Shown: positions 4,685 through 52,264, numbered from the stretch's first letter. The stretch: 64,000 bases of DNA from Thermoplasmatota archaeon (GCA_016928095.1 JAFGLL010000051.1:11779-75778); one strand, 5' to 3'. A program made the numbers and translations. Notes: generated by a model from the letters alone, not told the origin.

Positions 4685-6226
4685 ATGTATCCCGTGGATG
4701 GTATGATCCCTGATGATGATGGGTTGTTGTTCGTTAACGGATCGGTATGGGATAGCAGTGAGTTGCGGTTCAGAAAGGGTGAGCTCCTCCTTAGGGGTGG
4801 AATGATAGAGAACCTGTCCTTCGCCGGGAGCATACCATCCTTCGAAAGGTCACGAGCGAAGATGTTCGACCTTGAGGGTGGTTTCCTCTGTCCGGCCTTC
4901 ATTGACGCGCACATGCATCTTCTCCAATGGTCCATTACCCGATCCGGTGTTGACCTATCCATGTGTAATTCGGTCGATGACGTATCGGGTAAGATATCGA
5001 ACGTTGTCGAAGGAAGAGAAAAGAACTTTCTTTACGACAGGACCGGTATCGTTTTCGGAACCGGCTATGATGATTCCCGGTTCCAGGAGGGTAGGCTCGA
5101 TAACGGGTATTTTCTTGAAAAAGAGTTTGGCTGGGTCCCCACGATCATAAGAAGGGTGTGCGGCCATATAGCACTGGCAAATTCAGAGGGAATAGGGAGG
5201 CTCGGTCTGGAACAAGGAGATATGGGCCATTCCCCTATCATGGAAGATATTGCCATGAACCTGCCATGGAGACTGCCGATAGATCTCCCAACGCTTTCGG
5301 ACCTTTTAAGAAACGCCATTGATGCGTCCTATTCTGTAGGGGTCATTGGAGGTGTGGACATCGTTCCATTGTCCCATTTTGAAAGGATGATAGAGGCAAT
5401 CTCACGCACAAGTCGGACACTGGTCATGACATATGCAATGATAAGGGATGATGACAGAGACCTTGAAGGGGTGGTCCCGTTGTCATCCCGGAACGGAGTG
5501 CTTTCATCGGAAGTGAATGATGATAAGATGGTTCCCTTCGCCTTCGAAAAGTTCTTCTTGGACGGTTCAATAGGAGCAAGGACGGCAAGCTTTTCCGTGG
5601 ATTATACTGACTCACCCTCCTTCCCTCTTGTCCATGAGGATAATGAACTCAAAAAAAGGGTAACCTTAAGTTACGATCAGGGCATGGTCCCGATGGTTCA
5701 CTGCATAGGTGACAGGGCGATCTCGCAAGGTGTGGGCATCCTACGATCGTTCGGATCACCATACAGGTTGGAGCATGCCGAATCCATCGAAATTTCACAT
5801 CTCGCATCGATGAGTAAAGGAAAAGGGGCCTTATGCCTGCAACCGAACTTTCAATTTCTATGGGGTGGAAATGACGGCCTTTACGAGAGAGCACTCGGAC
5901 ATCATGCAAAATGCCTGAATCCTTTCAGATCGGTAGTAGATTCTAAAGTACAATGGTGTTTCGGTACCGATATGATGCCTCCCGGACCTTTGTTCGCGAT
6001 GAAGGGAGGTCTTGAACATCGGGACCCAAGGCAGAGGTTGAGCTTGAATGAAATGATAAAGGGATTCACCATCAATTCTGCTAGGATATCCCTGCAAGAC
6101 GATCATTACTGTCCAGAACTTATTGTGGGTTCCTCACCGGATATGATAGTGATCGACCGGGAGATGATGAGGGTAAATGCAACCATGGTCAAAGGTCAGA
6201 TCGTCCATGTGATAACCCAGACATGA
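4685..6226 (+). CDS. Metal-dependent amidohydrolase (YtcJ / amidohydro_3-like)
   Basis: PAFIDAHMH; RVCGH; KFFLDGSIGARTA; HCIGDRA; RLEHAE; FGTD. Confidence 0.9.
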   Translation: MYPVDGMIPDDDGLLFVNGSVWDSSELRFRKGELLLRGGMIENLSFAGSIPSFERSRAKMFDLEGGFLCPAFIDAHMHLLQWSITRSGVDLSMCNSVDDVSGKISNVVEGREKNFLYDRTGIVFGTGYDDSRFQEGRLDNGYFLEKEFGWVPTIIRRVCGHIALANSEGIGRLGLEQGDMGHSPIMEDIAMNLPWRLPIDLPTLSDLLRNAIDASYSVGVIGGVDIVPLSHFERMIEAISRTSRTLVMTYAMIRDDDRDLEGVVPLSSRNGVLSSEVNDDKMVPFAFEKFFLDGSIGARTASFSVDYTDSPSFPLVHEDNELKKRVTLSYDQGMVPMVHCIGDRAISQGVGILRSFGSPYRLEHAESIEISHLASMSKGKGALCLQPNFQFLWGGNDGLYERALGHHAKCLNPFRSVVDSKVQWCFGTDMMPPGPLFAMKGGLEHRDPRQRLSLNEMIKGFTINSARISLQDDHYCPELIVGSSPDMIVIDREMMRVNATMVKGQIVHVITQT

Positions 6227-6288
6227 TTACCGGCTCCAGTTTCATTACTAAGTAAGCTTTAAATAATAGTTCAATTATTTTTCAAATC

Positions 6289-6300
6289 TTTATATATATA
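6289..6300 (+). promoter_or_regulatory. Archaeal TATA-box-like element (TTTATATATATA) in an AT-rich patch upstream of the structured intergenic region
   Basis: AT-rich run 6241-6302 ending in TTTATATATATA; no plausible CDS follows for ~600 nt. Confidence 0.55.
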
Positions 6301-6319
6301 TTTCTCGGGGTCTTCGTGG

Positions 6320-6800
6320 TAGTGATAGAACTGAATTACGACGAACGAGCTAGGACCGGGGAAAACCCCTTGAAACGATCATCCATTACACACCTTGAAC
6401 CCCAAAACAACCCCAATTCCGGAGCTCATGGAAGTGATGCCCGTGCTTTCGTGCGCGATATAGTTGCTTCCACTCATTTCCTTAAGACCGGAAATGAACT
6501 GGGCTCCGGAACCCCTCTCGATATAAGGAGTTTCTCGGACCAGAAGGCGCAGGCTGTCAGAATAAGCGACTACAGCTTTCCAACCTTCGTGATACGGAAA
6601 CCAAGGCAACGTAGTTCGTATAGCGAAAAAGGAGAGGGGGGGATGAGCTCCCCCTCTCCAGGCGATCATGCTCATATATAAAACCTCTATTAGGAATCTG
6701 AAACCCCGGTTGTGCCGTCGAATTTTCCCCGTGGCACAACCACTCTTCCTTTCACTCGAGATGGGAGTCCCGGACCTCACCTCTTGCATGAGGTCCGATC
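6320..6800. ncRNA. Candidate structured non-coding RNA (unassigned family)
   Basis: 12-bp helix 6417-6428/6500-6511 encloses two hairpins (6429-6472, 6474-6497); further stems at 6631-6642/6648-6659, 6708-6716/6733-6741 and 6771-6779/6789-6797; only non-protein-like ORFs overlap. Confidence 0.5.
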
Positions 6801-6900
6801 AGTCAAGGCTGGGCGGAAAAAATGCTTATGAAAGGGAAATCATTATTAACTAAAGATCGCATCGAACATATGTACATTAAGGTATAGTAGGAGACCAAAA

Positions 6901-9591
6901 ATGCGACCATCCACGATAAGGACATTTGCGATCGTCATGGTCATAATGACAGCTGCACTTTTCGTACTGAACTTGGATGCTTCCGCTAAGTATACCCAGA
7001 TGGTCTCTTTCAGGGAAACCGAACAGGTTGCCAACCAAGATATCGATGGCCCTATTCCGGTGAACGGTGGTATCGATGGGTCCTCCGAAGACCCAAAGCA
7101 CATCTCTCTGTCGATCGAGAACATCCAGATATCGTCAATGGTGAACAAGAAGATCTTTCCGAACACACCAGTTGATTTCATCATTGATACAAAAGGCCCT
7201 TCACCCGAAGTGGTCACATTGTTCCTGGACAATAACCACCCTTCCATGAACATTACATACGATCTTGGTCGAAATACTGTATTGGTCTCCGAGAGCCTTT
7301 ACGATCTGATCAGGGTGGACATGGAAAGGACATCAGCAAAGTTCAATGCAACAAGTAGACACTGGGAGATACTCTTCGCCCTATCGTTCGATTGGACCTT
7401 CCCCAAGGACTTCACAAAGGACATAGAGGTCACCGTTGTCGATACCTATGGTAATCTTGATAATGAGATCCTCGAGGAAGCCTATACTTTTGAACCTGAT
7501 ATCGAGATCAGCGGAGAACCGATCATCATTGTGGATGACCCAAACATCCTGACCGATGACCTTTTCATTAAAGGGGGGGAGAATATACTCCTGAAGCAGA
7601 TCAGCATTCATTTCGAGGGAGTTCCGGAGGTATCACCTGACCCGGGTGATGTCACTATAGGTGTGGAGGATTCCTTTGGCAGGTTCTGGGAATATTCTCC
7701 CAGCTTGAGAGAACAGCTTGGAGCAGTCTCCTTCTCGTTACCTGTACCAAAAATAGATGGGCCCGACACTTTCGAGTTCGTGGTTATGGAGCACCCTTCC
7801 GGGTCTGTTGTCCATGGCGGGGCAAGGTTCGATCTTAAAATAGATTCAACACCACCTTCAATGGGAGATTTCAGATACAATTCCGTCGACGGGAACCTCT
7901 TCATGAGTTGGGCATTGAACGAGGAAGGTTCCGGATTGAGGACGCAGTCGATGAAGTATTCGATCCTCGATGGAGATGAGATGATAATACCTTGGACAGA
8001 TATTCCTTCCTCGGCATTGATCGATGATAGATTGAAGCTCGAGATCGATAATGTTGAAGGTGACGACCTGCAAGTAAGACTGAGCATGGCCGACAGGGTT
8101 GGCAATGATATCCCCCAGGACCAGATCTATTATGTAACAACGGACCCAGTCGTAGCCCATGACATATCCATCGATGGGCTGAGGTATTCTCCGAACACGA
8201 TAGTGATCAATCAGGTCATTACATTCTTTGCATCCGTCCACAATCATGGGACAGAGGATGAGGGCCAAATTCAGGTTGATGTCATGGAAGACGGGAATAT
8301 CCTGACCTATATGGAGCTGGACCTTCCTGCAGGTTCGACAAGAGAGATCAGATGGACCTGGAGAGCGACAGAGGGAACCTCATATTTCGAAGTATCACTG
8401 GATCCTCAGGGCAGGGTCCCGGACGAATACATGTCCGATAATATACTTCACTTCATTGTGGAACCGGACTATCTGGATGTAACAGCAAGGGAAGATTACA
8501 TGTTGCTTTCCGATTCAAATGCCCAAGACATGGATATAATTTCCATAACGTTCTCCATCAGGTCCATAGGCGGCATCGAAAGCGGACCGATCAAGGTCAT
8601 TTTCATGGAAGAAGACAAGTTTATGGGCATGTATCAGGTCCCTTCGATCTACAAGGAGGAGGCAAGAGAACTTGTAGTCTATTGGAAGGTCGATATTTCC
8701 GTCAGGAACCTTTCATTGATGATAGATCCCTATAATGAGATCCTTGAGTCGATCGAGGATAACAACCTGTTGGTATATCAAAATCCTTTCTTCCTGTTCA
8801 TTGAACCAACACCCGATGAGAATGTCCATATCGAAGAGGATGAGTATGATACACTCGAGGAAGAAGTGATCGATGAGGCGATGAACGGAGTGACCCCCTC
8901 CGGAGGCACGACCTGGAAAGGTGAGGAGATACCTCAAAAAGAGGAGGTAACGCAAGAAGGTTCTCCATCGTTACCTGTGATCATCTCTCCAACCCCGGAG
9001 GAACCCAAGATCATACCACCTTTGATCCTTCCCACCGTTGGTTTCATACTGGGTACTGGATTGTTCAGCCTTACCATATTCGGTCTCAGAAGTGAGGTTC
9101 TCAAATTCAAGCTGCTCGGTCTTCTCATACCTCTGTATTCAAAGATCAAGAAAAGCAAGATCGAGAAGGGGACCAGACACGAGATCCTCGGTTATCTGAA
9201 GGCCAAACCTGGCGCCAATTATTCGGAGCTAAAGAGGAACCTGGACCTCAACGACGGCTCTCTGGTACATCATCTTCGTGTACTGGAACGTGAGGATATG
9301 GTATATTCCAAGAAGATGGGGAAATACAAGCTCTTCTATGTGAGCAGTTATCGTAGACAGGCAACCATCAGGGATTATATATCACCGTTCCAGCTTAGGA
9401 TAATGGAGATAATACTGCAGAATCCCGGGATCGTCCCAAATAAACTTTCCAAGATCCTGGACCGAACCCAGACCGATATGTCCTACCATCTTGGTGAGCT
9501 CTCGAGGAATGGACTTCTTGAAAAAAGGAAGAAGGGGCGGAACATACATTATTTCATATCCGAAGAATATTCGGATATTCTCACGGTCTGA
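6901..9591 (+). CDS. Membrane-anchored protein: signal peptide, Ig-like/CARDB domains, TM helix, C-terminal tandem winged-helix DNA-binding domains
   Basis: Hydrophobic N-terminus; two CARDB-like repeats (VHNHGTEDE..LDPQGRVPDEYMSDN; IRSIGGIES..IDPYNEILESIEDNN); TM ~aa 706-731; RHEILGYLKAKPGANYSELKRNLDLNDGSLVHHLRVLE and FQLRIMEIILQNPG..MSYHLGELSRNGLL wHTHs. Confidence 0.8.
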   Translation: MRPSTIRTFAIVMVIMTAALFVLNLDASAKYTQMVSFRETEQVANQDIDGPIPVNGGIDGSSEDPKHISLSIENIQISSMVNKKIFPNTPVDFIIDTKGPSPEVVTLFLDNNHPSMNITYDLGRNTVLVSESLYDLIRVDMERTSAKFNATSRHWEILFALSFDWTFPKDFTKDIEVTVVDTYGNLDNEILEEAYTFEPDIEISGEPIIIVDDPNILTDDLFIKGGENILLKQISIHFEGVPEVSPDPGDVTIGVEDSFGRFWEYSPSLREQLGAVSFSLPVPKIDGPDTFEFVVMEHPSGSVVHGGARFDLKIDSTPPSMGDFRYNSVDGNLFMSWALNEEGSGLRTQSMKYSILDGDEMIIPWTDIPSSALIDDRLKLEIDNVEGDDLQVRLSMADRVGNDIPQDQIYYVTTDPVVAHDISIDGLRYSPNTIVINQVITFFASVHNHGTEDEGQIQVDVMEDGNILTYMELDLPAGSTREIRWTWRATEGTSYFEVSLDPQGRVPDEYMSDNILHFIVEPDYLDVTAREDYMLLSDSNAQDMDIISITFSIRSIGGIESGPIKVIFMEEDKFMGMYQVPSIYKEEARELVVYWKVDISVRNLSLMIDPYNEILESIEDNNLLVYQNPFFLFIEPTPDENVHIEEDEYDTLEEEVIDEAMNGVTPSGGTTWKGEEIPQKEEVTQEGSPSLPVIISPTPEEPKIIPPLILPTVGFILGTGLFSLTIFGLRSEVLKFKLLGLLIPLYSKIKKSKIEKGTRHEILGYLKAKPGANYSELKRNLDLNDGSLVHHLRVLEREDMVYSKKMGKYKLFYVSSYRRQATIRDYISPFQLRIMEIILQNPGIVPNKLSKILDRTQTDMSYHLGELSRNGLLEKRKKGRNIHYFISEEYSDILTV

Positions 9592-9596
9592 TCTTT

Positions 9597-10031
9597 TCAG
9601 CTTTTCCTGAGCATCTCGTAACTTGGATAGTGCAGAAGTCCTGCTATCAAGAGCTCCTCTATCACGTCTTCGATCAGGACCCGATCGTACCCTTCTTCGA
9701 TTAGATGGGTCAAAAGGTGTTCCCTGTCCATGTCCCTGTCCAAGACCTTCAAGATATACCTTCTCAGGCTATCTCTGCTTCTTCCCGAGGCATAATGGTC
9801 GACCGATCCCCTGTGCTCCGATATTTCTTCATGCAATATCTTATTCTCCCCACCTTCCCATTTAATGGCCTTCAGGGTAGCCTGCATCCTTTCAAGTGTA
9901 TCGAAGACACTTACGGGTGAGATCTTCATCATATCTATATGATGTGAGCATCTTAGGCATCTTGTGGTCTTCACGGGATAATGTCCACCCTGGAGGTTAC
10001 TGCAGAAAGGACACTTCACGATACAATACAT
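9597..10031 (-). CDS. Zinc-ribbon protein (DUF1922/DUF5817-like) with C-terminal helical or wHTH-like region
   Basis: CPFC..CLRC at the N-terminus; divergent from mcm. Confidence 0.6.
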   Translation of the reverse strand: MYCIVKCPFCSNLQGGHYPVKTTRCLRCSHHIDMMKISPVSVFDTLERMQATLKAIKWEGGENKILHEEISEHRGSVDHYASGRSRDSLRRYILKVLDRDMDREHLLTHLIEEGYDRVLIEDVIEELLIAGLLHYPSYEMLRKS

Positions 10032-10115
10032 GAAGGTCGATCGATCTGATGCCTGATAAATATTGACCTATCACTTTCTCATATCTCCCCCCGGGGCAAC
10101 CCCTTAACTGCCATT

Positions 10116-10128
10116 GTTTCCACTGGAA
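10116..10128 (-). promoter_or_regulatory. ORB (origin recognition box) core TTCCAGTGGAAAC, putative Orc1/Cdc6 binding site upstream of mcm
   Basis: Plus strand gtttccactggaa; the reverse complement matches the canonical euryarchaeal ORB core and continues AATGGCAGTTAAGGGG. Confidence 0.55.
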
Positions 10129-10206
10129 TGAGAGATGTAAAATACAGGTGCGGACCATGGACCCTGAAAAGGGGTCTTTTTTGGGTCCGTTCATAGGTGA
10201 AGGGTA

Positions 10207-14754: not shown

Positions 14755-14972
14755 TCTAATGGTATGGGGGGTCAACTCGGTTGGGTATTTGAGTTGCTGG
14801 CTCCGGTCCAAGATCACCTCCATGTGAGATCTCTTTCATTGATGAACGTAGAAACATATAAATAGTATTGTAATGTTGAAACAAATCCGTTGGATAATAG
14901 CAATATCCGTGGTCTTTGAAAATTACTCGATAATGGTGTATCCATTCATAAGATATTAGGAGGGTGATGAGC

Positions 14973-17174
14973 ATGGCAAAGGTTATCGGAATAGATCTTG
15001 GGACAACTTATTCGGCAATGGCAGTTCTGGAGGGGGGGGAGCCTGTGGTCATACCCACGGCGGAAGGAACCCGGACGATGCCTTCCGTTGTGGCCTTTAC
15101 GGAAGATGGTGAGATACTTGTCGGTCAGGTTGCAAAAAGGCAAGCCGTGACCAATCCCGAGAGGACAATATCCTCGATCAAGAGAAAGATGGGGACAAAA
15201 TACAAGGTAAAGGTCGATGAAAAGGTGTACACTCCCCAGGAGATCTCGGCCATGATCCTGAGGAAGCTTAAAAAAGATGCCGAGGAATACCTGGGAGAGG
15301 AGATCGATAAGGCTGTAATTACAGTTCCCGCTTATTTTGAGGACCCTCAGAGGCAGGCGACAAGGGATGCAGGGAGGATCGCCGGACTGGAGGTCCTGAG
15401 AATAATCAACGAACCCACGGCAGCATCACTGGCATACGGTCTCGACAAGCAGGACATCGAGCAGACAATCCTTGTGTTCGACCTGGGCGGTGGAACGTTC
15501 GATGTGTCTATCCTGGATATTGGCGAGGGTGTATTCGAGGTCAAGGCCACATCAGGTAACAATCTGCTTGGTGGTGATGATTTCGATGCTCGGATCATGG
15601 ACTGGATAATAGAAAAGTTCGATGAAGATTGCGGCATTTCACTTCGTGAGGACAGGAATGCGATGCAGAGATTGAAAGAAGCTGCGGAAAAGGCAAAGAT
15701 CGAACTTTCCTCTAGACTCGACACGAACATCAACCTGCCCTATATCGCAGCCGACAGTGATGGTCCGAAACATATCGATTATACCCTGACAAGGGCAAAA
15801 TATGAATCCCTCACGGAGGATCTAATCGATGCCACAAAAGGTCCGACAAAGAGATCATTAAAGGATTCTGGCCTGACTCCAAAGGAGATCCAGCAGATAC
15901 TCCTGGTAGGTGGGATGACAAGGACACCTGCAGTACAGAATTTTATTAAGGAGTTCTTCGGAAAGGCACCCAATAAGGGTATCAACCCGGACGAATGCGT
16001 TGCGATCGGAGCGGCCATTCAGGGTGGAGTTCTGACCGGTGAGGTCAAGGATGTCCTGCTTCTCGACGTAACACCCTTATCCCTTGGCGTAGAGACTGTT
16101 GGTGGACTTACCTCTAAGCTCATTCCCAGGAATACAACGATACCCTGCAGAAAGAACCAGATCTTCTCGACCGCGCAGGACAACCAGACATCGGTGGAGA
16201 TACATGTTGTACAGGGAGAGAGGGAGATGTCCACTGACAATAAGTCCCTTGGAAAATTCCATCTCATCGGGATACCCCCCGCTCCTAGAGGCGTGCCACA
16301 GATCGAGGTTACCTTCGATATAGATGCGAACGGTATAGTAAACGTTTCAGCGAAGGACCTCGCTACTGGCAAGGAACAGAAGATCACCATACAACCTTCC
16401 TCCGGTGTGACAGAAGATGAGGTTTCCAGGATGATAGAGGACGCTGACAAATATGAGAAGATAGACAAGAAGAAGAAGAAACTTGCAGAACTTCGGAACC
16501 AGGCGGATGCCATGATCTATTCCACGGAGAAAGCGATCGTGGAGCTTGAGGATAAACTGGACAAGAATAAGATGAAAGAGACCAAGATCGCACTGAAAGA
16601 GCTCAAGGTCCAGATGGAGGGTAAGAACGTCAAGGAACTGAAGGAGGCCATAGACATTCTTACAGAAAAGTCCCAGAGCTTGTTCGCCGATGCATACTCC
16701 GGTATCCGTGGGGATGATGAAGAAGGCTATGAACCGATCACGATAAAGTGTCCGAAGTGCAAGAAACCGATAAAGATAACCTCGCCCAAGAGGCCATTGA
16801 AGATCACCTGTCCGCACTGCGGGGCAAAGGGAACTATAAAGGGATCCCCACCCAAGAAGAAACCGGTAGAGGATCGGAAAGATGAGTCGAAAAAAGCTCC
16901 CAGGGAAGAGGAACCCAAGAAGAAGGTCAAGAAATCCTCCTCGGAAGAAAAGGAAGAGACAGAGGAGAAGAAACCTAAAAAGAAGGTGAAGAAACCTTCG
17001 GAGGATGAGGAGGAGGAAGAGGAGCCCAGGAAGAAGGGGAAAAAGGAACCGAAATATGAGCCCGAACTCATTGATTGTCCCAAATGCGGGAATGAGATCG
17101 AGATCGATTCTCCTGAAAGACCCCTAAGGGTTCAGTGCCCTGAATGCGGCGCAAAGTTGAAGATCACGGAGTGA
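14973..17174 (+). CDS. dnaK: Molecular chaperone DnaK (Hsp70) with C-terminal double zinc-ribbon extension
   Basis: GIDLGTT; TVPAYF; INEPTAA; [10 protein letters not shown]; NPDECVA; [11 protein letters not shown]; [15 protein letters not shown]. Confidence 0.98.
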
Positions 17175-48607: not shown

Positions 48608-51600
48608 GTGACATGTGGTGAACGAGGAGTGTTGGACCGCTTGGCAGAATATCTGAACGGGCGTTATACCGATCCGAATGGTTTGGGCCGAAATATCGGG
48701 TTAGATCCCCGGGAAGGGATAGTCGTAGAATCCTCTCTGAGGCCCCTTATTGATGAAAAGAGCGGTTATGTCGTCCTGGGAAGAAGCAGCTCCGCTCACA
48801 AGAAATGGAGAAGGAAGGGATTGCTTCAGATCGGTGCTGTTGGGGAGTTGCAGGAAACCGGTGATAACCTTTTCGGAAGGGAGGTTTACATTGATGCAGC
48901 CTTCCCGCACATCATGTTCATCTGCGGTAAGAGAGGAAGCGGAAAATCCTATACCCTTGGTATCTTTGCAGAAGAGCTCATCAGGTCAGCCATAGGTGTC
49001 GGTGTCATACTCGTCGACCCTATCGGTATCTTCTGGTCCCTGAAGACGGAGAACACTTCCAGGTCCGAGAGAAAAGCACTTGAGAAATGGGGTTTGAACC
49101 CTACCTCGTTCCCTGAGGTAAAGGTCCTTGCGCCCGGAAACGACATCGGCATGCTGCCCGCCAATTGTGATGGACCCTATACCATAGGGGTCAGTGAGAT
49201 GACGGCAGAGGATTGGTGTCAGGTCTTTGACATGGACAGGTTCAAGACCCAGGGACTTCTTGTCGGGACCGCCATAGATCAGGTGAGATCGGGATACAAG
49301 GCCCTGATAGATGAAGCAATGATCGATATTCCATCCAGACCCCAACTTTTCTCTATAGGGGATATCATCCGATGTATGGAATTCTCATCGACGATCATCA
49401 GCAAGACAGGGGGATACAACCCGCAGACCAGGAGATCGGTGATCGCCAGGTTCACCGCTGCCGCGGGCTGGGGAATATTCAGCATCGAAGGCACACCACT
49501 CAGAGAACTCACATCACCGAACAGGGTGACCGTTCTTGATGTCAGCGATACGAACCTGGGAGATTCAAAACGAAGCCTCATCACCGGGATCATCGCCCGA
49601 AAGGTTCTCGAGGGAAGGATCAGATCGGCAAGGAAAGAGGAACATCACGGTTTCGATGAGACGGACCCCGAAATGATCCCACTGACATGGCTCCTGATAG
49701 ATGAAGCACATATCATCCTTCCACACAACAAACAGACACCTGCTTCGGAAGCTCTGATAGAATATGCCAAACAGGGCAGGAGACCGGGATGCGCCATGAT
49801 CCTTGCAACCCAGAGACCCGCCTCAACATCCGATGAGATCCTTTCACAGGTGGACATTCTTCTTGGCCACAACCTCGCCCTGGAGGACGACATGTCGGCC
49901 TTGAGGAGGAGGGTCCCGGCAAAACTCCCCCAGGAGTTCGCTGTTTCGGATTTCATCAGGGGTATACCCGTCGGGACCGCTATCGTCGCTGACCAGAAGA
50001 CACAGCAGAGGTCTTTCCTTGTTAGATTGAGACCACGATTATCCCATCATGCAGGGAGTTCCGCAATGCCAAAAGCATTTCAGGAGAAGAAAGGCAGAAT
50101 GAAGAGACCGATCCCTCTCACGGGAACTTATATTCCCAGGAATATGCCATCCGTCCTTGATCCTACCCCGGTCCCACGTTCTATCGATGACATAGGCGAA
50201 ATCGAAGAGATAGATGAAGATCCTTCTGTATCTGTTTCTCCTGTTTCGGAGGTGATCGCAGATGTCCCGGAAGATCTGGATATCATACCCGAAGGTCCTG
50301 TACCGGACCTTCCTTGGGGTTCGACGATCATTCTCAGGGACAGGTCGAAAGAGGACCTGGAAATGTTTTTGGGGAACGTTGAAGGTGCAACCGGGTTCAT
50401 GCTACTATCTGCCGATGATCCATCAAGGTTAAGTGTTCCATCAGGACCCAAGAGGGTGGACCGCTGGTTCTCGGAAACCGATTCATGTCCGATCCGGGAC
50501 CCAAACGGTCCGGAGATGGCTCTTTCCGCTATAGAGAACACCATCGGAGAAACAAGCTCATGGGTCGTGGTTATCGATCATGTCGAGAACATGTTCAAGG
50601 AACACCCCAAGGAAAAGATCAGGGGTATGTTGAAAGCACTGCATGACAGGGTATTCGAGGGGAAGCATCTTCTGGTGATCAGATGGGATGGTGAAGACCG
50701 GGAAGGAATGCTTCAAGGGATCTTTTCCGTCAAGGATGGGGTCGAAAAAGGACCGGGGCCGAGCATGAGGGACCGAAAGGAAGGCCTCATGCCCACCAAG
50801 ATCGTCCAAAACGGCTCATTGAGGGATGAAGAGCTCAGATGGATGTGCAACGTCATGGGACTTCCAACGGATGGCAACGATACAGAACTGCTGAACAGGT
50901 TGCTGGAATCAGGAAAGGGTATCCTTAACGAAAGCAGCGGGGATAATGTCAATATCGACCTGTTAAAACAGGTGATGCATGAGTCGACAAGGGCCAGAGA
51001 GGAGAACAATAGACTTCTTCAGAGGATCAAGGAGCTCGAATCGGAGATAGGTGTGGATACCCCCGCAGAACCTTTGAGAGAAATGCAAGTTGCTGAAAAA
51101 GGTATCAAGAAGGATAGGAAACTCGTGGTTGTTTGGGAAGATGAGGAGCAGCAACAGGGAAAGGTCGAGCAGTTCATCCAGGAAGTGGAAGACCTGAAGA
51201 GTGAGATAGAAAACGGGCCGATCGAAGGCTCTCCCGCAGAATTCAGTGACACCCTCTTTTCAAAATTGATGAACAAACTCGATGAGGAAAAGCTTGAGAA
51301 CCGAGAACGCCTGAAAAGGCTTGAGGAAATTCTCCAGAACGAGATGGATTCCTTCAGGGATGAGCTCGAATCTCAGAGAAAGAAAATGACAGCATCACGC
51401 AGGATACCAAAGCTCAGGGTCATCAAGGAAAAGCCTCCCCATATGGAACACACTGATGTGAAGAACAGGGTCCTGAAAAGGAAGGTCCTGAAAAGGGGGG
51501 AGGAAGTGGCGGCGGTATCCCCAAGAATAGAGACAAACCAAGCACTGGATATCGGGAAAAGGAACCTGAAAAGAAGTATCTTCAGGGGGCCAAAGGAATC

Positions 51601-52264
51601 CATTGATGATATCATACCCTATAACATATTGCTTTATCGATTTCTTGTAGGTTACAGAGGAGGATTGAGAAGGTCCGACAGGGAATCCGATGTGTTCATT
51701 GATTCCATTACGGGAGAGATCGTGGAACAGGGTAGGACCGGGCTCAGGAGGAGCGAGGGCCTGCCATGCCTCCTCAGGATGACCGATCTGGAGATGGACG
51801 TTTTCGCAGTATTGACCACATCACCGAAAGAGCCGTCATGGATATCCAAAGCTTCCGGCATAGACGTTGCTCGGGTTAAAAGGTCTCTGTCATCTCTCGA
51901 GAAAAAAGGACTTGTAAGGAGGGTCCGAATAGAAGGTAACCTTGACCTTTTTTCGATAGGGGACAATATCAAGATCCCTTCAAGACCTTGGGTGAGGGAC
52001 CATGGATTTGAACCAGCTTTCGTGATATGTAAAGGTGAGAGGATACTGACCCCGAGGATAACGGTTAATGATGCACGGACCGTGATCGAGAGATTATCTC
52101 GCCAGATAGATATCATAGAACAGGATACCGTTAGATATCCGATCCATGTGATAAAGATCAGGGGTGAGGGTCGAACTAGATATATCGCCGTAGATGGATT
52201 CGGGGGCAGGTTGGACAGAAGGATCTCCAATATCCTCAAAAACATCATCGAGGGCGGCAATTAG
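48608..52264 (+). CDS. HerA/FtsK-superfamily ATPase (DUF87/COG0433-like) fused to DUF835-like, SAP-like, coiled-coil and wHTH modules
   Basis: GKRGSGKSYT (Walker A); LVDPIG; LLIDEAH (Walker B); ILATQRP; VVIDHVENMF; EELRWMCNVMGLPTDGNDTELLNRLL; KRSLSSLEKKGLV. Confidence 0.85.
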   Translation: MTCGERGVLDRLAEYLNGRYTDPNGLGRNIGLDPREGIVVESSLRPLIDEKSGYVVLGRSSSAHKKWRRKGLLQIGAVGELQETGDNLFGREVYIDAAFPHIMFICGKRGSGKSYTLGIFAEELIRSAIGVGVILVDPIGIFWSLKTENTSRSERKALEKWGLNPTSFPEVKVLAPGNDIGMLPANCDGPYTIGVSEMTAEDWCQVFDMDRFKTQGLLVGTAIDQVRSGYKALIDEAMIDIPSRPQLFSIGDIIRCMEFSSTIISKTGGYNPQTRRSVIARFTAAAGWGIFSIEGTPLRELTSPNRVTVLDVSDTNLGDSKRSLITGIIARKVLEGRIRSARKEEHHGFDETDPEMIPLTWLLIDEAHIILPHNKQTPASEALIEYAKQGRRPGCAMILATQRPASTSDEILSQVDILLGHNLALEDDMSALRRRVPAKLPQEFAVSDFIRGIPVGTAIVADQKTQQRSFLVRLRPRLSHHAGSSAMPKAFQEKKGRMKRPIPLTGTYIPRNMPSVLDPTPVPRSIDDIGEIEEIDEDPSVSVSPVSEVIADVPEDLDIIPEGPVPDLPWGSTIILRDRSKEDLEMFLGNVEGATGFMLLSADDPSRLSVPSGPKRVDRWFSETDSCPIRDPNGPEMALSAIENTIGETSSWVVVIDHVENMFKEHPKEKIRGMLKALHDRVFEGKHLLVIRWDGEDREGMLQGIFSVKDGVEKGPGPSMRDRKEGLMPTKIVQNGSLRDEELRWMCNVMGLPTDGNDTELLNRLLESGKGILNESSGDNVNIDLLKQVMHESTRAREENNRLLQRIKELESEIGVDTPAEPLREMQVAEKGIKKDRKLVVVWEDEEQQQGKVEQFIQEVEDLKSEIENGPIEGSPAEFSDTLFSKLMNKLDEEKLENRERLKRLEEILQNEMDSFRDELESQRKKMTASRRIPKLRVIKEKPPHMEHTDVKNRVLKRKVLKRGEEVAAVSPRIETNQALDIGKRNLKRSIFRGPKESIDDIIPYNILLYRFLVGYRGGLRRSDRESDVFIDSITGEIVEQGRTGLRRSEGLPCLLRMTDLEMDVFAVLTTSPKEPSWISKASGIDVARVKRSLSSLEKKGLVRRVRIEGNLDLFSIGDNIKIPSRPWVRDHGFEPAFVICKGERILTPRITVNDARTVIERLSRQIDIIEQDTVRYPIHVIKIRGEGRTRYIAVDGFGGRLDRRISNILKNIIEGGN

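Follow-up and report, generated by a model that had tools for sequence, protein, structure and literature searches.

The stretch of DNA analysed here (64,000 nt; hereafter, the window) belongs to an uncultured Thermoplasmatota archaeon represented in a sediment metagenome, and contains a large gene (open reading frame (ORF) 6901..9591, + strand, ATG start, 896 aa) whose product combines a signal peptide, a beta-rich ectodomain, one transmembrane (TM) helix and two winged helix-turn-helix (wHTH) domains. Judging from the sequence and from structure models built on it, the balance tips slightly towards this protein being a membrane-tethered one-component transcription regulator. By the same kind of comparison, the module that consists of the TM helix and the C-terminal tandem wHTH recurs behind interchangeable adhesin-like ectodomains and is a standard design within Thermoplasmatota. 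The most unexpected item of the locus is a near-invariant non-coding element of 65 nt located upstream of the gene, which is linked to the large protein by co-inheritance only.

Architecture and topology of the large protein

An earlier note on this DNA, made from the sequence alone, had placed the gene at exactly these coordinates and described a signal peptide, beta-rich domains with two CARDB repeats, a stalk, a single TM segment and two ArsR/MarR-like winged helices, with the C-terminus in the cytoplasm. The domain searches and the topology prediction that it proposed were both run, and agree with this layout: Pfam and the AlphaFold2 (AF2) models recover all the parts in the same order and at the same positions (Table 1), the ArsR/MarR-like nature of both winged helices is borne out by Pfam, NCBIfam, PDB and Foldseek matches, and the cytoplasmic C-terminus is consistent with the positive-inside rule and the signal peptide.

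The hydropathy profile begins with a hydrophobic segment (approximately aa 9-27) followed by A-S-A|K, and small residues at positions -3 and -1 are kept in the orthologues (ASA, ASG, VSG, ADA); the signal peptide, predicted to be of the Sec type, looks cleavable and is presumably cleaved at this site. The three immunoglobulin (Ig)-like domains that follow (aa 67-416) have no Pfam match at E<=1, and the next two domains are covered by CARDB (PF07705; two stretches scoring 68 bits, cut-off 22.7). Each CARDB domain closes with a D-P-x-(G/N)...(D/E)-N(-N) motif, the D/N columns of which are nearly invariant in the orthologue alignment; the motif at aa 608-622 (IDPYNEILESIEDNN) is of the CARDB-type C-terminal form (D-P-x-N...E-x-N-N) and is combined, in the model, with the beta-sandwich fold expected of this family. 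The stalk (20 D/E and 10 P in 74 residues, isoelectric point (pI) 4.05) leads to the TM helix and to a juxtamembrane helix that bears the signature of the family, E-x-(G)K(Y/F)-x-LL-x-L-x-x-PLY-x-K-(L/I)-K(K/R), in which the Pro is invariant and the E, L and Y are nearly so. The first wHTH domain matches PF24266 (HTH_HVO_0163_N, aa 758-818) with 65.1 bits against a cut-off of 31. For the second (aa 828-878), HTH_20, HTH_24, HTH_5 and MarR all exceed their Pfam cut-offs (PF01022, 28.5 against 22; MarR PF01047, 27.5 against 24.6, a marginal match covering the wHTH core only), as does the NCBIfam model for an ArsR/SmtB subfamily (NF033788; 59.2 against 55), and the equivalog models of the ArsR family (Rv2640c family, BigR, CmtR) score far below their cut-offs.

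The mature ectodomain is acidic (pI 4.17) and the cytoplasmic part is strongly basic (pI 9.82), with 8 K/R within the 28 residues following the TM helix. Given this charge contrast, the positive-inside charges and the signal peptide, the topology is predicted to be N-out, C-in, that is, the protein is a type-I single-pass membrane protein. Fusion of two genes, or an assembly artefact, was considered and ruled out because the orthologues are collinear in at least 12 independent contigs.

The full-length AF2 model, built from an alignment of 18 orthologues (mean predicted local distance difference test score (pLDDT) 77.5), consists of an N-terminal helix (2-28), a disordered segment (29-66), an all-beta region (67-627, blocks with pLDDT ~80-94), a second disordered segment (636-706), the TM helix (709-729), the juxtamembrane helix (732-768), the winged-helix pair (774-814, 829-886) and a short helix at the very end. 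The C-terminal 200 aa, modelled on their own (pLDDT 88.5), show the same succession of TM helix, long helix, wHTH and wHTH. Taken singly, the wHTH domains superpose on SmtB, CzrA, HlyU and ArsR at a root-mean-square deviation (rmsd) of ~2 A (Foldseek), with the alpha-alpha-alpha-alpha-beta-beta core and the S-x-H-L recognition helix that define the ArsR-type winged helix. In sequence searches against solved structures, wHTH-2 matches ArsR, MarR and SlyA chains (including the ArsR 6j05), and the best match of wHTH-1 is 5duk (E 1.9e-12), a 'putative DNA binding protein' of 77 aa that shares the NPG...YHL..LE(R)...Y.R.Y signature as a single isolated domain, and for which no function or paper was found. 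The ectodomain retrieves only generic Ig/MG/FN3 strings (complement C3/C5, CD109, receptor ectodomains and the Haloferax S-layer protein 7ptp) at TM-scores of ~0.14, none of which points to a particular ligand or specifically to the surface-contact or protein sensor suggested by the earlier note.

Word-indexed protein searches recover close orthologues only (46-68% identical over the full length, all from Thermoplasmatota metagenome-assembled genomes (MAGs), and annotated as 'CARDB domain-containing protein' or 'predicted transcriptional regulator'), and four of the orthologous contigs have identical synteny. More distant orthologues were located through the upstream element combined with an exhaustive search; those in loci L085-L090 are 34-52% identical, and the most divergent one (P0025, locus L091) is 25% identical and collinear across 846 aa. 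The gene for MCM lies downstream in every orthologous locus whose contig extends that far, and no paralogue is present within the window; the large gene is a single-copy, syntenic, vertically inherited orthologue that is always located upstream of MCM. Because wHTH-1 is 92-97% identical to the window protein among the six closest orthologues, compared with 34-78% for the Ig-like and CARDB domains, the cytoplasmic tail is under the strongest constraint; identity in the TM segment outside the closest orthologues is 12-38%.

A family of membrane-bound tandem winged helices

The wider family becomes visible through exhaustive HMMER searches. Among 1.84 billion cluster representatives, a phmmer search with aa 697-896 (TM helix and tail) yielded 4,944 at E<=1e-3 and 1,749 at E<=1e-10, such that the rarity of the architecture implied by the earlier note does not hold: the same module occurs in thousands of clusters, with large and varied ectodomains. 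Of the 159 sequences analysed, 148 have the end of the module no more than 40 residues from the C-terminus and 149 have a hydrophobic TM-like segment immediately before the module; the proteins range from ~110 to 2,185 aa. HTH_HVO_0163_N and HTH_24 are both present in all 60 distant members sampled, the ectodomains of which contain CARDB (9), PKD (7), FG-GAP (6), He_PIG (6), Big_9 (6), NPCBM_assoc (5), Beta_helix (4), NosD (3) and other domains. The window protein aligns with the family end to end and shares its invariant columns (P, G, L-E, G, G and Y). The juxtamembrane consensus of the family alignment is E-x-G-K-Y-x-L-L-x-L-x-x-P-L-Y-x-K-L-x-K-E-x-V-L-D, and the two recognition helices are ArsR-like (N-G-T-L-x-Y-H-L-x-x-L-E and S-Y-H-x-x-x-L-x-x-x-G-x-I, both of the (S/N)-(Y/H)-H-L-x-x-L type).

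The named members of the family come from MAGs labelled Thermoplasmata, Thermoplasmatota or 'Euryarchaeota'. A pattern scan of the GTDB species genomes, built on an alignment of 5 sequences and so biased to one sub-family, produced 106 confirmed matches, nearly all in Thermoplasmata, Methanomassiliicoccales or 'Methanobacteriota archaeon' MAGs, with several copies per genome and up to five (CP070751.1) within the reach of this biased scan; the GTDB genome scan with the full-length protein produced no confirmed relative. One member is encoded on a chromosome labelled Candidatus Aminicenantes bacterium (CP070825.1, locus L046); either horizontal transfer or a mistake in binning or labelling could account for this.

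A chain that holds at least one predicted TM region together with a predicted DNA-binding domain is, by the operational definition, a transmembrane transcription regulator (TTR), and because both are found in the same polypeptide here, the window protein falls under this definition. A census of TTRs (Demey et al., 2023; PMC10269533) describes them as proteins with a TM region and a DNA-binding domain, mostly single-pass and common in archaea (~4 per genome); its text contains no mention of Thermoplasmatota, CARDB or PKD. The TTR class, the component domains and the database labels as wHTH regulators are thus already known, and what we did not find described in the literature searched is the type-I topology of this family with its C-terminal tandem ArsR/MarR wHTH, its large swappable adhesin-like ectodomains and its expansion in Thermoplasmatota.

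The ectodomain (five Ig-like domains, of which the last two are CARDB) is predicted to be exported and held off the membrane by the flexible stalk. If the protein is a regulator, ligand binding or clustering of ectodomains would be relayed through the TM and juxtamembrane helices, the conserved juxtamembrane helix being the sole candidate relay element. The relay would then alter the engagement of DNA by both wHTH domains while the protein remains in the membrane, and a single chain with two wHTH domains could be a built-in pseudo-dimer that contacts two half-sites without dimerisation. In this reading, DNA binding and the signal relay, as well as any ligand and target genes, are inferred. The regulator reading is favored by the ArsR/MarR affiliation of the wHTH domains in both sequence and fold and by the basic tail; furthermore, the family shows an expansion of paralogues with variable sensors, as is typical of signalling proteins. 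Three other large type-I surface proteins encoded in the window have a signal peptide, an ectodomain and a single TM helix, followed by a short, charged, low-complexity tail of 45-110 aa; because they share this layout but lack the wHTH domains, the wHTH pair can be regarded as a specific cytoplasmic addition.

Comparison with known systems shows partial correspondence in each case. Like ToxR, TcpP and CadC, the window protein combines a TM segment and a DNA-binding domain in one polypeptide. The order, however, is reversed compared with ToxR and CadC, in which an N-terminal cytoplasmic OmpR-type wHTH is followed by the TM segment and a small C-terminal periplasmic sensor, and the window protein has a tandem ArsR/MarR pair and an Ig/CARDB ectodomain of ~565 aa; a match to the OmpR-type domain (Trans_reg_C) was not found at E<=1. 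ArnR and ArnR1 of Sulfolobus acidocaldarius are archaeal, membrane-bound one-component regulators of surface-structure genes, with the HTH on the cytoplasmic side as in the window protein (PMC10269533). The HTH motifs of ArnR are N-terminal whereas those of the window protein are C-terminal, and no sequence relationship between ArnR or ArnR1 and the window protein was detected. To our knowledge, ArnR is without a large ectodomain.

The Bacteroides hybrid two-component systems are closer in layout, with a large periplasmic sensor, a TM segment, a C-terminal HTH and many paralogues with differing sensors (PMC10269533). Both kinds of membrane protein join, within one chain, a large extracytoplasmic sensor to a DNA-binding domain at the C-terminus. 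In the Bacteroides proteins, the signal is relayed via histidine-kinase and receiver domains to an AraC-type HTH; in contrast, the window protein has no phosphorelay, and ~26 residues of helix separate its TM segment from wHTH-1. With respect to the DNA-binding domains themselves, both match ArsR/SmtB and MarR repressors by sequence and fold, and HVO_0163 of Haloferax volcanii, the namesake of PF24266, has been called an ArsR-type transcription protein (PMC10294847). ArsR/SmtB and MarR proteins are small, often with metal or thiol sites, whereas the window protein is membrane-anchored, carries two wHTH domains per chain and, over its 896 aa, contains zero Cys. The repressors of these families are generally soluble dimers, ArsR/SmtB proteins pairing through terminal helices and sensing through Cys or His/Asp/Glu sites, and MarR proteins pairing through helices on either side of the wHTH.

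Several observations weigh against a regulatory function. DNA binding is a prediction from homology, and winged helices can contact proteins or RNA as well. With no Cys at all, the protein has none available for sensing in the manner of ArsR, and MarR-type dimerisation helices were not seen in the models, which contain one short C-terminal helix (888-895) only. Considered as a unit, the tandem resembles RPC34 of RNA polymerase III, ScpB, SelB, ESCRT-II (Vps25/Vps22; ESCRT, endosomal sorting complex required for transport) and PF0095 of P. furiosus about as well as transcription factors: these proteins, all with two consecutive winged helices, are the top Foldseek matches, although with TM-scores of ~0.3 and rmsd of 10-14 A the likeness is confined to the generic arrangement, sequence similarity is absent and none of them is membrane-anchored. 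Moreover, wHTH-1 begins ~10 residues past the conserved PLY motif and therefore may be held near the membrane, which could hinder its access to DNA. Neither a neighbouring gene nor a conserved target operon common to the family was detected across the 80 loci examined (199 neighbours in 119 clusters, with recurrence that follows orthologous sub-groups only), the literature and expression searches found no experiment on any family member, and the metatranscriptome contigs of the source study contained nothing from 5800-10200.

The steric problem bears on the possibility that the protein is an inactive membrane precursor, from which an ectodomain signal, through shedding and intramembrane cleavage as in SREBP, Notch or RsiW, would free the wHTH pair to act on the chromosome. 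Proteolytic release would relieve this problem, the long disordered stalk (aa 633-706, pLDDT ~30) would offer an accessible region for site-1 cleavage, and the invariant Pro of the juxtamembrane motif could serve as a recognition or helix-breaking site. Nevertheless, neither the large gene nor the 80 family loci show any linked protease (site-2 protease, rhomboid or other), and the poor conservation of the TM segment outside the closest orthologues is unlike typical substrates of regulated intramembrane proteolysis with their conserved TM features, so that we consider release, which the earlier note also offered as an option, distinctly improbable.

The family ectodomains raise a serious rival, namely that the protein is a structural or adhesive component of the envelope, possibly S-layer-like, in which the winged helices are a non-transcriptional anchor or adaptor that binds nucleoid DNA nonspecifically, a cytoskeletal or sorting protein, or RNA, and functions in positioning rather than in gene regulation. 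CARDB, PKD, FG-GAP, beta-helix, Big and He_PIG are classic adhesin and envelope modules; the other type-I surface proteins of the window share such ectodomain types (in particular, the 1095-aa and 1379-aa proteins, those with Pfam matches, draw on the same repertoire of ectodomain types as the wHTH family); an archaeal S-layer protein (7ptp) and the tandem-winged-helix adaptors ScpB and ESCRT-II are among the Foldseek matches; and winged helices are known to be sorting adaptors in archaeal ESCRT systems (PMC11188069). The near identity of the recognition-helix motifs across paralogues also fits a common partner better than many operators, but a conserved motif of this kind is normal in the ArsR family, too, despite differing operators. 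Given, further, that the similarity is specifically to the DNA-binding ArsR/SmtB/MarR proteins, above curated cut-offs, and that the cytoplasmic domain is strongly basic, this alternative appears rather unlikely, and a membrane-tethered regulator is the reading that we prefer.

The upstream region and its near-invariant element

The region adjacent to the start of the large gene (6227-6900) was resolved by alignment of the orthologous intergenic gaps of 5 loci. The earlier note had regarded 6240-6900 as structured and as a plausible target of the protein. A hairpin element is indeed present, but most of this interval is a small protein-coding gene, accompanied by an AT-rich promoter-like block; and, although the element is co-inherited in every orthologous locus, a role as RNA is favored over that of a DNA operator.

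The AT-rich block, which contains two TATA-like boxes and is recognisable also in L091 and L092, likely is the promoter of the small-ORF transcript. The small ORF shows pairwise differences of 0.238/0.201/0.382 at the three codon positions; its product is soluble, has no Pfam or PDB match and has homologues restricted to this lineage of Thermoplasmatota. L091, which diverges most among the orthologous loci, lacks the small ORF but retains the promoter-like block and the element. For the large gene, the motif TTATTAAC would function as a TATA box; comparable TATA-like motifs are found 55-60 nt upstream of the large gene in L091 and L092, and the rest of the sequence between the element and the large gene is weakly conserved.

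Across loci, the element has a mean pairwise difference of 0.03-0.05, compared with ~0.5 in its flanks, and outside the hairpin loop it is identical in loci whose flanking proteins are 25-68% identical. Both halves are present in 12 of the 12 orthologous loci fetched, including L091, and in none of the 80 paralogue loci; a search with its exact 23-mer added six more metagenome contigs, each with the same gene order, and within the window the element is single-copy. The stem arms are invariant, and the loop varies in both sequence and length (11 to 20 nt), as does the distance from the element to the start of the large gene (75 to ~306 nt).

The loop sequence TTTTCCCCG (6723-6731) is perfectly complementary to CGGGGAAAA (6357-6365), which is located just upstream of the small-ORF start, 357 nt apart. 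Equivalent pairs, in which a different loop has its matching partner at the equivalent position, occur in L086 (ATGGGGAAA with TTTTCCCAT) and in L092 (GGGGCAA with TTGCCCC); in the other loci, the match between the loop and a 5' partner is weaker or located elsewhere. This pattern suggests an interaction between the 5' and 3' parts of the small-ORF transcript, and because of the variable loop and the complementarity to the upstream 5' untranslated region (UTR), a role in RNA is indicated more than that of a DNA operator with fixed geometry; the element itself may act as RNA.

In six loci other than the window, the conserved non-coding stretch runs on for ~250 nt past the element. Between the element and the large gene, these loci have a second conserved block, with the exact 29-mer CCCTTCCCATACGGCTATTTCCCCACAAA in L001 (5810-5838), L002 (5810-5838), L085 (8744-8772), L090 (11746-11774) and L092 (3037-3065) and a version one base shorter in L088. 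A long-range helix encloses this block, and of the 6 pairs with compensatory changes that RNAalifold reports overall, most are in that helix. A longer structured RNA of ~250-300 nt may exist in these loci and may have been reduced in the lineage of the window.

Other assignments of this region were examined and dropped. Rfam gave no match at gathering score in the window beyond three tRNAs elsewhere, only chance-level matches (E>2) in 6100-7000, and none in the longer version of L001; inspection by eye for RNase P RNA, signal recognition particle (SRP) RNA and C/D or H/ACA small RNA revealed no box motif arrangement and no pseudouridylation pocket. The invariant block does not appear to be coding (ORF 6668..6853, frame 'KTSIRNLKPRLCR') given that indels in the loop do not preserve a reading frame and that the flank lacks synonymous variation. 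A replication origin, which might be considered given the AT-rich block and a repeat resembling an origin recognition box (ORB) near MCM, is unsupported because the element is single-copy and there are no repeated boxes. Independently, the public assembly contigs of run X1 break exactly at the invariant hairpin (6706-6720), which is probably an assembler artefact at the palindrome rather than biology.

The strict co-inheritance of the element and the large gene allows for a locus-specific tether, whereby the wHTH pair would recognise 6679-6745 as DNA or as an RNA hairpin and would either autoregulate the gene or hold the MCM-proximal region, or its transcript, at the membrane. The element accompanies orthologues down to 25% protein identity, even where the upstream synteny is broken (L091), and is missing from all the paralogue loci; wHTH-1 is unusually conserved in the same set of genomes, the large gene is always beside MCM, and SelB-type tandem winged helices are among the structural matches. 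However, the variation in the distance to the gene start and the hairpin spacer of 11 to 20 nt are unfavorable for a fixed operator, the complementarity of the loop to the small-ORF 5' UTR, with compensating changes in two loci, suggests a role within the upstream transcript, and conserved gene order alone could account for the co-occurrence. Altogether, a tether of this kind seems very unlikely. A broader proposal, which we regard as improbable, is that the wHTH pair and the hairpin element form one functional unit (with the element bound as DNA or as an RNA hairpin) that couples the state of the Ig/CARDB receptor to the expression or membrane localisation of the MCM-linked locus or transcript, the thousands of paralogues being an archaeal set of receptor-like transcription factors that exchange their adhesin ectodomains and operate without a phosphorelay.

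Genomic neighborhood and implications

The neighbours of the large gene in the window include genes for a DNA ligase, a geranylgeranyl-reductase-like flavoprotein, an Amidohydro_3 enzyme, MCM, a DUF424 protein, a radical-SAM protein, GrpE and Hsp70. Immediately downstream (9597-10031, - strand) is a gene for a conserved 144-aa protein that carries a CxxC...CxxC zinc ribbon near its N-terminus and shows a weak hint of DUF5817. At most orthologous loci this gene is convergent to the large gene; L091 lacks it, and there 17 nt separate the large gene from MCM. Two other genes of the window have unusual domain combinations: 48608-52261 (+ strand, 1218 aa) encodes an unusual fusion of a HerA-type (DUF87) ATPase with a C-terminal TrmB-type wHTH, and 14964-17171 (+ strand) encodes an Hsp70/DnaK homologue extended at its C-terminus by a zinc ribbon (weak LysW-like, Zn_ribbon_4 and HypA-like matches, aa 590-734).

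Table 1. Features of the large gene, its upstream region and other surface-protein genes of the window. Identities are to the window protein, for the six closest and the seven more distant orthologues.
Feature	Residues (aa)	Position	Strand	Observations	Six closest	Seven distant
AT-rich block, TATA-like boxes TTTAAATA (6258-6265) and TTTATATA (6289-6296)		6258..6299	+	60-80% invariant columns, 5-locus alignment
Small ORF, conserved TTG start	103 aa	6370..6681	+	stop-free and alignable in all loci having it
Near-invariant element TAAAACCTCTATTAGGAATCTGAAACCCC; hairpin arms GGTTGTGCC (6708-6716) and GGCACAACC (6733-6741), then ACT		6679..6745	+	starts at the stop codon of the small ORF
Candidate TATA box TTATTAAC of the large gene		6843..6850	+	~50 nt upstream of ATG; kept in 4/5 aligned loci
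Signal peptide	1-29	6901..6987	+	n-region with 2 Arg, ~16-residue hydrophobic core, A-S-A|K; putative cleavage
N-terminal linker, disordered	30-66	6988..7098	+	pLDDT 25-48; orthologue identity 9-41%
Three Ig-like beta-sandwich domains	67-200, 201-316, 317-416	7099..8148	+	AF2 all-beta, pLDDT ~81-94	34-78% (with CARDB)	14-45% (with CARDB)
Two CARDB domains	417-522, 523-632	8149..8796	+	Pfam PF07705	34-78% (with Ig-like)	14-45% (with Ig-like)
Stalk, acidic, Pro-rich, disordered	633-706	8797..9018	+	pLDDT ~30; orthologue identity 14-45%	19-45%	14-22%
Single TM helix	707-731	9019..9093	+	hydropathy peak 703-729; AF2 helix 709-729
Juxtamembrane helix, conserved	732-757	9094..9171	+	AF2 continuous helix 732-768; family alignment	81-92%	50-62%
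wHTH-1, HTH_HVO_0163_N/ArsR-type	758-818	9172..9354	+	Pfam PF24266; pI 9.64; most conserved part of the protein	92-97%	60-92%
wHTH-2, ArsR/MarR-type, and short C-terminal helix	828-886, 888-895	9382..9588	+	Pfam, NCBIfam HTH_metalloreg	74-94%	35-70%
NosD/beta-helix/Big surface protein	1095 aa	25748-29032	-	short charged tail
Surface protein, no family match	876 aa	29834-32461	-	single C-terminal TM
FG-GAP/He_PIG/Big_9 surface protein	1379 aa	57962-62098	-	single C-terminal TM

Signal transduction in uncultured Thermoplasmatota, which include archaea from sediments, marine habitats and the gut, is almost unknown. The ultra-conserved non-coding element beside an MCM-linked orthologue offers a defined first target for binding assays. 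If the tail turns out to be a non-regulatory anchor, tandem winged helices would have a new role, in the organization of the archaeal envelope. If, on the other hand, these proteins are regulators, Thermoplasmatota would sense the outside world largely via a large set of single-chain receptors, each with an adhesin-like ectodomain and a DNA-binding tail, and with no kinase or second messenger; this would be a simple modular design that helps to explain how polymers, surfaces or neighbouring cells are recognised and, possibly, a minimal transmembrane gene switch.

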